Below are positions 27,279-53,495 of a stretch of 64,000 bases of DNA, one piece after another (within the stretch, counting starts at the first letter, position 1; each line of letters begins with the position of its first letter). Source of the DNA: a phage; the sequence record PZ386961.1, one strand, 5' to 3'. The notes below the pieces were generated by a model. It saw nothing but the letters and a program-made list of their open reading frames with translations, did no database searches and was not told the DNA's origin. The position numbers and the translations under genes are program-made.

Positions 27279-28132
27279 TAAGAATTTCCTTCTTGTTGTG
27301 ATTTATCTTTTCTGCCTTTGACAATTTGTGCAACCTCAGCCATGATTCCGTATGCACCACCTGCAATAGCTTCTTTACCAACGATGAAATAACCACTCTT
27401 ATTAGACCTATCTACAGTCATATAATCATCGCTCTGTGAGTTTGCTGTTCTGTCAACCTTAAAGTAACCATCAATAACACCAGCATCTGCAAGACTCCCT
27501 ACTAGGTTGGACTCCAGAGAGCCACCAGTGTTATTTGTGACCAGACCTCTGTTAGCATCAGTTACAAACCAGTTCTCTTTATCATCAACAATAGCAAGTG
27601 ATGAATCAGCAACCTCTACAGGTGTCCAAGCGGTCCCATTTAAAGTAACATCTCTTAAGATAACAGCGGAACCAGTGGTTGTTGCAGAAATCTTTGACAG
27701 TGTATACGCAGCATCAAGAACGCTTTTTCTAGTATTAATACGGATAACGATACCACCAGTCTTAGGAGTAATATGCTCAAAAATCTGAGAGAAAGTTGCA
27801 CCATACAATGTCATAATTGCTTTTTGCAAGAATGTTGGAGTAGTATCAGAACGTCTTAGGAAGATTTGGATATAAAGCATAGCTCTATATGTTTCATCAT
27901 CAGCACCTAAAGGTCTAGGAACTTTAATCAGTGAGCCAATATTATCAAGTTGTTGACCTACTGACATCCTGATATTTCTCTCTGTGTGCATCTGCCAGCA
28001 AACATCCTCTAGTGTTTGTAGCTCATCAGTGATTGCTTTCAAGATACTTGTATAGATAAATTTATCTTTAAACTGTGTTACAGTCCTTTCATCAAGTGTT
28101 TTATAATAAACACTATCAATCTTTTCAAACAT
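27278..28132 (-). CDS. baseplate protein (P2 gpI / Mu gp48-like position)
   Basis: Synteny after J-like baseplate gene. Confidence 0.4.
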
Positions 28133-47616: not shown

Positions 47617-47693
47617 TGGTAGTCCAGTGGGATTTGAACCCTCTTCTCATGTTTTTCAGACACGCGCTTTAACCATATAAGCTACTTGGACTA
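47617..47693 (-). tRNA. tRNA-Phe (anticodon GAA), non-canonical D-arm junction
   Basis: Manual fold: acceptor tagtcca/tggacta, loop ctGAAaa; extra nucleotides between acceptor and D-stem. Confidence 0.45.
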
Positions 47694-49959: not shown

Positions 49960-50042
49960 TGGCATGGGACGGAGGAGTTGAACCCCTTTGAAACGGTGTT
50001 GGAAGCCGTTGCTCATGCCTTAGAGTCTTAACATCGTCCCAT
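49960..50042 (-). tRNA. tRNA-Trp-like (anticodon CCA), non-canonical (about 8 extra nt between acceptor and D-stem)
   Basis: Perfect acceptor atgggac/gtcccat, stem aacgg/ccgtt with ttCCAac loop, D-region too long for standard fold. Confidence 0.35.
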
Positions 50043-50184: not shown

Positions 50185-50261
50185 TGGCACACCCTACAGG
50201 ATTCGAACCTGTAACTCAATGATTAGAAGTCATTTGCTCTGTCCAGTTGAACTAAGGGTGC
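50185..50261 (-). tRNA. tRNA-Arg (anticodon UCU)
   Basis: Manual fold: stem aatga/tcatt, loop ctTCTaa. Confidence 0.7.
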
Positions 50262-50463
50262 ATTAATCTTTAAAGACTCTCTTAGAAAGCCCTTAAAGAT
50301 GCCCACCTTATTAATCATACCGTGGGCGAGTACGCCAAATTCTTTGATGAGGGATTGGAAGACCTCACTGGTGTTTAGCCTATCAAGCTACTGCCAGAAA
50401 AACATTGTCGTTTGCATTTATTTTAAATTTGCAAAATAGACGCTACGCAACGAAAACTAAGGT

Positions 50464-50492
50464 TACTATAAAGTAGTCACATCTCAATGTCA
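50464..50492 (-). promoter_or_regulatory. sigma70-like promoter TTGACA-N17-TATAGT inside tRNA cluster
   Basis: Minus-strand hexamers read directly; faces tRNA-Arg(UCU) and downstream tRNAs. Confidence 0.5.
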
Positions 50493-50507
50493 ACAACTTT
50501 ATTGAAA

Positions 50508-50583
50508 TTGGTACTGGTAGGTGGAATCGAACCACCGATGTTCCCTTATCAGGGGAGTGTTATAACCTTCTTAACTATACCAG
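50508..50583 (-). tRNA. tRNA-Ile (anticodon GAU)
   Basis: Manual fold: loop ctGATaa, D-stem gtta/taac, discriminator A. Confidence 0.7.
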
Positions 50584-52079: not shown

Positions 52080-53495
52080 TTACCAGATATAACGGTCAAT
52101 CATTACTGCTTTGAGCATTACACTGATTGGGTCAAACTTCTCACCACCAAGCAGAGCTTTTAAAGTGGCTGGAGAGAACCCTGATACCATTGCTACACCG
52201 TTATCCTTAATAGATACTTCGCAAGTGCCATTACGGTTTGCTAAGTACCAGAATACCAGTTGTGGCATCTCATATCCAGATTTTTCGTACTTATCTCGAA
52301 TTGCTTCAAAGTTTGTACGACCATTAGCACCATCAACCTGATTAAACTCCATATCAGAGAAGATAATAAGCTTACTTGGCATATCTTTCTGAGTCAAGTT
52401 GTTTCTTTTACCTGTTTCAAGAATGCGGTCAAAAGCTGCTTGTAAGTTAGTTGAGCCATATTCAACGTGTCGCATCACCTGACGATGACGGTTTCGTAAA
52501 TCACCACTCAGTTCGATGAAGTGAGGGTTTGTCGAATAAACCATCAACTCATTCTTAAAGCAACCTGTATTGCGTTCTGCTACATACAAGGCAAGTGATA
52601 CACCAATATCCAGAGCAGTAATGGAGCCAAAATTCACCCAAGACATTGAACTTGATACATCAGACATACACAAGATGTTTTCACCTTCTGCCATCCAGTT
52701 TGGTAGTGCTTTCCACTGCTCATTAGCAACATCTGCATTACCATACTTGACAGATTTAATCACATCGTATGGGTAAACAGCACCAGCGTTAATCTTAGTC
52801 TCACCTTTTGATAAGGACTCGATGTAAGCTTTGTAACGCTCTCCATCTTTACGGTTAAACAGTTTTTGGTAACGTGCAGCAGCAAGTGAAGGAATCTTAC
52901 TGTAGTCAATCTTACCAAACTCATTAGCAGAGATTTTTTGCTCAACTGTATCAGATAGTGCAGACAACAGTGTGCGGTACTCTTTCTCACTCAAGTTGGC
53001 AAACTTGCAGAAACGTTTTACAAACTGCTTATGACGTGGTTTGACTCGTGGTAACCACTTAGCCGCCAAACCTGCTGTTGCAGGGTCTAGTAATGCTGCT
53101 TCTAAATGCTTGAAGGCATCTGTCTCGAAACGAGTACCTACAAAGATTTTGAAGTCATCAAAACGACCAAGTTCTGCAATCTTATCCATAATGCGAAGAA
53201 CCTGCGTAGGCTCTAAAACTTTATCTTCAATTGCTTGAAGCAAAACAGTTCTGAAGGCTTTACGCTCACCCATACCTTCTCGTACATCTCGCATATGAAG
53301 CAAAATACGAACTGCAACATCAACATCCTCACGCAAAGCTTTGTAGAACAAGTCTGGTAAGATTTCTACATTGCTACGGCTTGAACCAGCAGCTTTGTAA
53401 AAGTCTACAAGAGCAGACATTGATGAAGTATGGTTTACAGCACCATTTTCAGTTCGACCTGCATGAAGGTGCGCATGTTTAAATAATTCGCTCAT
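52080..53495 (-). CDS. vWA-domain protein with helical N-terminal domain (Ro60/TROVE-like or DUF2828-like)
   Basis: C-terminal MIDAS motif in ILCMSDVSSSMSW (DxSxS) and downstream IIFSDMEF; N-terminal about 270 aa helical. Confidence 0.5.
   Translation of the reverse strand: MSELFKHAHLHAGRTENGAVNHTSSMSALVDFYKAAGSSRSNVEILPDLFYKALREDVDVAVRILLHMRDVREGMGERKAFRTVLLQAIEDKVLEPTQVLRIMDKIAELGRFDDFKIFVGTRFETDAFKHLEAALLDPATAGLAAKWLPRVKPRHKQFVKRFCKFANLSEKEYRTLLSALSDTVEQKISANEFGKIDYSKIPSLAAARYQKLFNRKDGERYKAYIESLSKGETKINAGAVYPYDVIKSVKYGNADVANEQWKALPNWMAEGENILCMSDVSSSMSWVNFGSITALDIGVSLALYVAERNTGCFKNELMVYSTNPHFIELSGDLRNRHRQVMRHVEYGSTNLQAAFDRILETGKRNNLTQKDMPSKLIIFSDMEFNQVDGANGRTNFEAIRDKYEKSGYEMPQLVFWYLANRNGTCEVSIKDNGVAMVSGFSPATLKALLGGEKFDPISVMLKAVMIDRYIW

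Follow-up and report, generated by a model that had tools for sequence, protein, structure and literature searches.

A structurally non-canonical tRNA-Trp(CCA)-like gene conserved in the tRNA cluster of Felix O1-type phages

The DNA analysed here (the window, 64,000 nucleotides of phage sequence, record PZ386961.1) carries the tRNA cluster of a Felixounavirus, a Felix O1-like myovirus. ARAGORN called 26 tRNAs in the window, at 46.6-51.9 kb; they cover 19 amino acids, and tryptophan alone is absent. Thirteen nucleotides upstream of tRNA-Ser(UGA), the minus strand encodes an 83-nt RNA (50042 to 49960, encoded 3' CCA included). The first-pass annotation had placed a tRNA-Trp-like gene here; its coordinates and strand were exact, and the acceptor stem, T-arm and CCA anticodon stem-loop that it reported are all present in the reverse complement of 49960-50042. 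The flanks of the gene are those of the cluster: CCA is encoded in 25 of the 26 called tRNAs, most of which have a T at -1 and an A-rich trailer, and the gene is alike. A search for open reading frames of at least 40 codons overlapping the gene found none, and the 'hypothetical protein' calls that lie over it in some records are probably spurious.

Numbered so that position i is window coordinate 50043 - i, the RNA reads AUGGGAC-G-AUGUUAAGA-CUC-UAAGGCAU-GAG-C-AACGG-CUUCCAACA-CCGUU-UCAAA-GGGG-UUCAACU-CCUC-C-GUCCCAU-G-CCA. Sixteen distinct variants of the gene were collected and a covariance model (R1) was built from them, to which the variants were then realigned; the window copy scores 109.6 bits end to end on this model. 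All parts of the gene lie on the minus strand. The acceptor stem has seven pairs, formed by the 5' strand AUGGGAC (nt 1-7, 50036-50042) with 49964-49970. Its pairs 1-72 (AU in nine variants, GU in four, GC in three) and 2-71 (UA in 13, CG in two) covary, A1-U and U2-A being replaced by G-C and C-G; a metagenomic variant (L113) has two acceptor-stem mismatches. The 3' end of the gene (49960-49971) consists of C72, the acceptor 3' strand GUCCCAU, the discriminator G (G73) and CCA, and GCCA is invariant. Position 50035 is G8, in place of the usual U8, and could form an eighth acceptor pair with C72 (49971), which is otherwise the C of an A.C mismatch at the T stem. Both RNAfold and RNAalifold pair G8 with C72. 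The two bases are invariant in 16 of 16 variants, and covariation does not discriminate between an 8/4 arrangement with G8-C72 paired and a 7/5 arrangement with the A.C mismatch; the acceptor/T branch probably stacks as 8+4 instead of 7+5.

The stretch between the acceptor and D stems is where the gene departs most plainly from a cloverleaf. In place of the two-nucleotide U8-N9 connector, all 16 variants have G8 followed by AUGUUAAGA (nt 9-17, 50026-50034), whose alignment columns are invariant, including those of the Yersinia and Pectobacterium phage copies (about 76% overall identity). The connector is thus 9 nt long if G8 and C72 are paired and 10 nt if they are not, against the standard 2, and the 7-8 extra nucleotides agree with the insertion of about 8 nt estimated at first pass. 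It leads into a D arm (50012-50025) with a 3-bp stem, CUC/GAG (nt 18-20 with 29-31), and the loop UAAGGCAU, which contains an invariant GG. Compensatory changes occur in this stem: pair 19-30 is UA in ten variants, AU in five and GC in one, pair 20-29 is CG in 14, UA in one and UG in one, and CUC/GAG is found as CAC/GUG, UAC/GUG and CGU/ACG. An ancestral-looking alternative stem, G11U12U13/A30G31C32 (GUU/AGC), in a register that presumably matches the GUUC/GAGC of Escherichia coli tRNA-Trp, is broken in six of the 16 variants, and CUC/GAG is preferred. All 16 variants would allow the connector bases A9U10G11 to pair with C26A27U28 on the 3' side of the D loop, with changes on one side only (C to U, A to G); we keep this putative pseudoknot, read from the aligned sequences, as a hypothesis.

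The anticodon arm (49992-50010) has a 5-bp stem, AACGG/CCGUU, and a nominal 9-nt loop, CUUCCAACA. Its five Watson-Crick pairs covary, with double compensatory changes in four of the five, and its core, YU-CCA-AM, is conserved; in the window copy this core is U32 U33 C34 C35 A36 A37 C38, flanked by C.A. Position 31.39 is C.A or C.C, which makes the loop formally 9 nt, and the register of the stem moves by one, which places a Watson-Crick pair at 26-44. Positions 32 and 38 change jointly (C/A, U/C, U/A). The anticodon CCA (50000-50002), which reads UGG (Trp), is invariant in all variants. The variable loop, UCAAA (49987-49991), has 5 nt and invariant columns. In the T arm (49972-49986) the stem GGGG/CCUC has four standard (Watson-Crick or G.U) pairs and an invariant A.C beside them; pair 50-64 is GC in 13 variants and UA in two, GGGG/CCUC changes to UGGG/CCUA, and the loop, UUCAACU in the window, is UUCRAMU in all variants. 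The 9-nt anticodon loop, the shortened T stem with its A.C and the possible G8-C72 pair are details beyond those of the first-pass annotation.

These departures are reflected in the behaviour of tRNA finders. ARAGORN made no call on the gene in default, intron (-i) or lowered-threshold (-ps) modes, and Rfam RF00005 gave no match to it even at E<=10 in a 93-nt search; no standard cloverleaf with other boundaries was found in these searches. An intron-containing cloverleaf is not credible either, the combination -ps80 -i simply inventing a 55-nt 'intron'. Only in its metazoan-mitochondrial mode did ARAGORN call the gene, as 'mtRNA-Trp(cca)'. The best Rfam match was tRNA-Sec (RF01852), which at 16.9 bits stays far below its gathering score of 47. 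Like the gene, tRNA-Sec has a longer acceptor stem, an enlarged D region and, on one reading, six pairs in the anticodon stem; the score and the lack of a UCA anticodon, of a long variable arm and of a 6-bp D stem with a 4-nt loop led us to reject this identity. The Tymo tRNA-like family, at 10.4 bits, was far under threshold. In the reverse direction, canonical tRNAs align end to end to the covariance model of the gene family, with up to 38 bits, and the family therefore has a tRNA-like architecture. One neighbour is irregular as well. The first-pass annotation had noted a 2-nt extension in tRNA-Phe(GAA) (about 47617-47692, minus strand); the irregularity is there, and its size has to be corrected, as it comes from a single additional A on the 5' side of the acceptor stem (AGUCCA-A-G against CUGGACU) together with a D loop of 9 nt. 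The T stem of this tRNA is GGG/CCC with A.A, and it is called normally by ARAGORN and by Rfam (45 bits) despite its shape.

The fold of the gene is strongly constrained. Standard pairs fill 98.8% of the cells in the alignment of the 16 variants, and double compensatory changes occur in nine of the 20 pairs and in all four helices; these variants all come from one phage subfamily, in which independent substitution events are few, and many of the differences may share few origins. None of 500 shuffles reached the observed covariation score. When the 3' partners were slid as a control, pairing was only 35-58% (maximum 57.5%). RNAalifold returned the identical 20-pair structure from the fitted alignment, which is biased towards the structure, and the same four helices minus two terminal pairs from a structure-blind MAFFT alignment. 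Judged from these alignments, the agreement of RNAalifold and the pair counts on four helices marks a fold beyond chance.

Such a pattern is not that of a decaying tRNA-Trp pseudogene with leftover tRNA-like pieces. Decay might leave mismatches beside helices (A.C, C.A), additional bases in the D region and a sequence that the finders do not call, all of which apply to the gene, and other tRNAs of these phages are flagged as pseudo by tRNAscan-based annotations. Against this, six haplotypes of the anticodon stem are present (AACGG/CCGUU, GACGG/CCGUU, GUAAG/CUUAC, GUAAG/CUUGC, GUAGG/CCUAC and ACUUG/CAAGU), all fully paired, and compensatory changes keep all four helices. Between Escherichia and Pectobacterium phages the flanks diverge, yet a run of 14 bases in the 5' part of the gene stays the same throughout. 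The gene is also more conserved than the flanking spacer: a rough alignment of the region has variation in 27 of the 83 columns of the gene and in 111 of the 142 columns of the upstream spacer. The pseudogene option offered at first pass is rejected on these grounds of conservation and covariation, and we regard decay as very improbable. Conservation at the DNA level, as the target of a homing endonuclease, a promoter or another protein-binding site, is if anything still harder to credit. HNH cassettes do insert at exactly the same locus, and a weak promoter-like match (9/12) lies just upstream. The latter is outside the gene, homing endonucleases exploit conserved genes and do not create them, and constraint of this kind yields no compensatory pair changes in four helices.

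The gene is widespread in its phage group, and none of the annotations sampled there labels it as a tRNA. The 921-bp surroundings match 279 phage records, and an 86-nt query with the gene found it in 236, of which 197 are at least 95% identical (65 at 99% or more, 132 at 95-99%); blastn with the most divergent variant again returned 236 records, with an identical organism breakdown. The copy in Felix O1 itself (AF320576, 26533-26618) is 100% identical. Divergent copies occur in Mooglevirus, Suspvirus, Yersinia phage P778 and Pectobacterium phage Arno18 (about 76% identity) and in metagenomic contigs. A strict pattern search of IMG/VR and metagenomes confined the family to Ounavirinae-like contigs, and the same pattern had no match in 185,579 bacterial and archaeal genomes. 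The exact 15-mer GGGACGATGTTAAGA, tried in IMG/VR as a route to a wider family, retrieved mostly unrelated sequences, many of them reading as coding (W-D-D-V-K). A 97.7% identical copy of the element is also present in the record of Staphylococcus phage SA1 (GU169904.1, 59836-59921), which we suspect to be chimeric or contaminated. Among the 100 matches listed, none has a tRNA annotation at the site of the gene; there is nothing there, or a 'hypothetical protein'. The Felix O1 genome paper gives 22 tRNAs, none at this position (PMC3185647), and the Sf14 study gives 26 tRNAs for 19 amino acids (PMC12482277). Our literature search found no earlier description of a tRNA-Trp from the Felix O1 group.

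Several observations point to tryptophan. The Trp identity elements of bacteria are the anticodon bases, G73, the first base pair and, as a minor element, G5-C68 (PMC9976931), and a check of the window copy found the full set: C34 C35 A36, G73, A1-U72 and G5-C68. In other variants the first base pair is G1.U72 or G1-C72. Like those of the window, the tRNAs called in Pectobacterium phage Arno18 and in Yersinia phage P778 lack Trp alone, and in Michonne and SUSP2 Trp and Tyr are both absent. Erwinia phage vEam_PM_6, of the same subfamily, is without the element and has a canonical 76-nt tRNA-Trp(CCA), whose loop, C-UUCCAAA-C with a 31.39 non-pair, is that of the Yersinia and Pectobacterium variants. 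At the end of its tRNA cluster, this phage (L118, 7982-8052) also has a 71-nt 'tRNA-???' with a 2-base anticodon, as called by ARAGORN, which adds one more tRNA-like gene of irregular form to the subfamily.

The most direct comparison is with an alternative allele at the same locus. A different 71-nt tRNA-Trp(CCA) with a reduced D arm was found in 26 records, 23 of them from Felix O1-group phages. In typing phage 11, VpaE1_ev78 and wV8, the three examined, the segment 50042-49958 is exactly replaced by this 71-nt tRNA-Trp, followed by a 134-aa HNH-type ORF, and the first 45 kb of wV8, tRNA cluster included, hold no copy of the window-type element. The 236 and 23 records compare with roughly 257 non-Erwinia matches of the region, numbers that are consistent with one Trp allele or the other in each genome. 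That the gene is swapped for another tRNA-Trp argues that tRNA-Trp function is conserved at the site. The two alleles share genomic site, anticodon, A1-U72, G73 and an abnormal D arm; they differ in that the 71-nt gene is unrelated in sequence (27 bits on R1), has a shortened D arm and not a longer connector, and is linked to HNH. The 71-nt gene (L001, 1080-1150; wV8, 27798-27868) is labelled tRNA-Trp in some records, by pipelines that use ARAGORN, and tRNA-OTHER or pseudo in wV8 and D1-2, and its closest matches outside the group are in Vibrio phages of roughly 250 kb (80% identity over 60 nt).

A second exchange of this kind lies nearby. In VpaE1_ev78 (L002, 1293-1736, compared with window 50185-50261), tRNA-Arg(UCU) is swapped for an 82-nt tRNA-like gene and another HNH ORF. 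The 82-nt gene, present in some relatives, has a CUUCUAA loop, no normal D arm and a long variable region, and the HNH ORF is 49% identical to that of the Trp cassette over the C-terminal 59 aa. VpaE1, the phage named as the parent, has window-type alleles, which suggests a homing-type exchange of odd tRNA alleles. T4 SegB-type homing exchange (PMC2330249; PMC13096335) is similar in having endonuclease genes within a tRNA cluster and alternative tRNA alleles between relatives; the likeness concerns the neighbouring HNH cassette and not the element, and cleavage and homing by the HNH proteins of Felixounavirus are putative.

Other features of the neighbourhood were noted. The 247-nt spacer between tRNA-Ile and tRNA-Arg(UCU) (50262-50508, minus strand) contains a strong match to a sigma-70-like promoter, TTGACA-17-TATAGT (50493-50465). 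The RNA of the spacer is strongly structured (z = -3.84) and has a weak Rfam tmRNA match (15.9 bits). It includes a hairpin, UGAGG-UCUUCCAAUC-CCUCA followed by UCAAAG (about 50342-50372), and a motif, YTCCAA-N7-TCAAAG, is common to this hairpin and to the anticodon arm and variable loop of the gene, occurring twice in the window against 0.01 expected. The hairpin motif is conserved in relatives with either Trp allele, and the spacer may be the remnant of a tRNA-Trp-like gene, or else a small stable RNA. On the same strand, the upstream side of the tRNA cluster is directly adjoined (52080-53495, minus) by a gene for a 471-aa DUF2828 + DUF7788 protein, with homologues at the same position in wV8 (gp047) and Yersinia phage P778 (ORF021) that are labelled 'RNA-binding protein'; a PDB sequence search with the DUF2828 protein gave no match. 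In wV8 (L120, 4139-4804), gp004 is annotated as a polynucleotide kinase, an enzyme that is a hallmark of T4 tRNA repair, and this is a hint of tRNA-cleaving defences in the hosts of this phage group.

All known bacterial tRNAs are stated to have the canonical fold (PMC11551756), a point against reading the gene as a tRNA. We set the gene beside tRNAs of established type. With the canonical tRNA-Trp(CCA) of bacteria and phages (E. coli; vEam_PM_6, L118, 5221-5296) it shares the YU-CCA-AM core, G73, A1-U72 (G1-C72 in some variants), G5-C68, the GG of the D loop, the UUCRA T-loop, the encoded CCA and a position in a phage tRNA array. It differs in its 9-10 nt connector, G8, a 3-pair D stem, a 4-pair T stem with A.C and a 26-44 pair. 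The closest architectural precedent is provided by the 8/4 tRNAs and the '(8/4) tRNA1 with an extra loop (E-loop)' of Mukai et al. 2017 (PMC5389517; PMC7609411), among which 8/4 tRNA-Ser and tRNA-His have been reported from phage tRNA clusters (PMC5389517; PMC7609411). The likeness lies in the possible 8-bp acceptor and 4-bp T stem, a 12-bp branch, and in the extra loop between acceptor and D stems, which in the consensus of the gene is 9 unpaired nt. The tRNAs of that report are Ser, His or undetermined, many have long variable arms, and they come from Acidobacteria, Clostridia and alphaproteobacterial phages; compared by architecture, the gene is unlike them in its Trp anticodon and identity set, its enterobacterial Ounavirinae setting, its strong covariation and a variable loop of 5 nt, which also sets it apart from the allo-tRNA group with its long variable arm. 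The best reading of these comparisons, made at the level of sequence, is that the gene would work like a tRNA-Trp while being a structural variant that lacks the connector of the canonical family and is not recognized by its models.

Taken together, the Trp gap in the called tRNA sets, the Trp identity elements and the presence of other tRNA-Trp(CCA) genes at the locus make an unusual functional tRNA the best supported of the three options offered at first pass (the others being a pseudogene and a tRNA-like regulatory RNA). We consider it probable, with moderate confidence, that the gene is real, under selection and codes for a structurally non-canonical tRNA-Trp(CCA), which would complete the tRNA complement of Felix O1-type phages at twenty amino acids. 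The RNA would be co-transcribed with the cluster, cut by RNase P at A1 and trimmed at its 3' end to the encoded CCA. Host TrpRS would charge it via C34C35A36, G73, A1-U72 and G5-C68, and the charged RNA would decode UGG during infection, a codon that makes up about 1.3% of those in the long ORFs of the window. The connector may form an additional loop within a D-domain core reshaped to take it, where its bases possibly pair with the 3' side of the D loop.

A less probable alternative, which we nevertheless take seriously, is a tRNA-like RNA that is folded and yet does not decode: an RNA serving as decoy or sponge to a tRNA-Trp-recognizing nuclease or enzyme of the host, a partner of the DUF2828/DUF7788 protein, or some other stable RNA such as phage tRNA clusters encode. 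The gene for that protein directly adjoins the cluster on its upstream side, the invariance of the connector and of the variable loop points to a specific ligand or a special core, and the shape of the RNA is outside the range accepted by tRNA finders. The 9-10 nt connector, G8, the 31.39 non-pair and the A.C beside the T stem are all unusual for a fit to EF-Tu and the ribosome. Irregular 8/4 and E-loop tRNAs, moreover, include species that are charged but unused and species that are uncharged: neither of the E. coli enzymes tested, GlyRS and ThrRS, aminoacylated in vitro the sole tRNA that has been described with an extra loop at this place, and related G-1 tRNA1 species of the same polycistrons are charged but unused in translation (PMC5389517). 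A decoy, however, would not need the full Trp identity set, the U33/A37 core, the elbow contacts of GG and T-loop, or an encoded CCA. The joint change of positions 32 and 38 is as expected of a tuned decoding loop, and decoding is the simplest account of why, throughout the subfamily, the gene and a canonical or alternative tRNA-Trp gene complement each other exactly.

The odd shape of the RNA could possibly be kept for resistance to host tRNA-directed nucleases or for altered decoding kinetics. D-arm (Hirsh-type) mutants of tRNA-Trp have altered decoding, for example UGA read-through. In the window, eight of 41 long ORFs end in TGA, with no obvious pattern of avoidance or extension that would speak for a UGA suppressor. 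A more elaborate proposal, which we think unlikely as a whole, makes the connector a structural module. A9U10G11/C26A27U28 would stack on CUC/GAG to give a pseudoknotted D helix of about 6 bp within an 8/4 tRNA that is charged by TrpRS and used by the E. coli/Salmonella ribosome. Among natural tRNAs that translate in a bacterial system, such an RNA would be the first to have its D-domain core rebuilt, and it would be kept to escape a host tRNA-directed defence nuclease or to change decoding, as in UGA read-through.

Felix O1 is a classical and heavily used Salmonella typing and biocontrol phage, and the gene is missing from the published tRNA lists of its group (PMC3185647; Sf14, PMC12482277). 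The exact swap with a second odd, HNH-linked tRNA-Trp offers a tractable case of homing-type exchange of tRNA alleles. If the gene makes a working tRNA-Trp, E. coli and Salmonella translation would accept a 9-nt connector between acceptor and D stems, a natural counter-example to the two-nucleotide rule, and the RNA could serve as a starting scaffold for orthogonal tRNA design. It would also represent a conserved class of phage tRNAs that is systematically missed by tRNA finders. These phages would then encode a full 20-amino-acid tRNA set, which would bear on how their codon adaptation and their escape from tRNA-cleaving defences are modelled.
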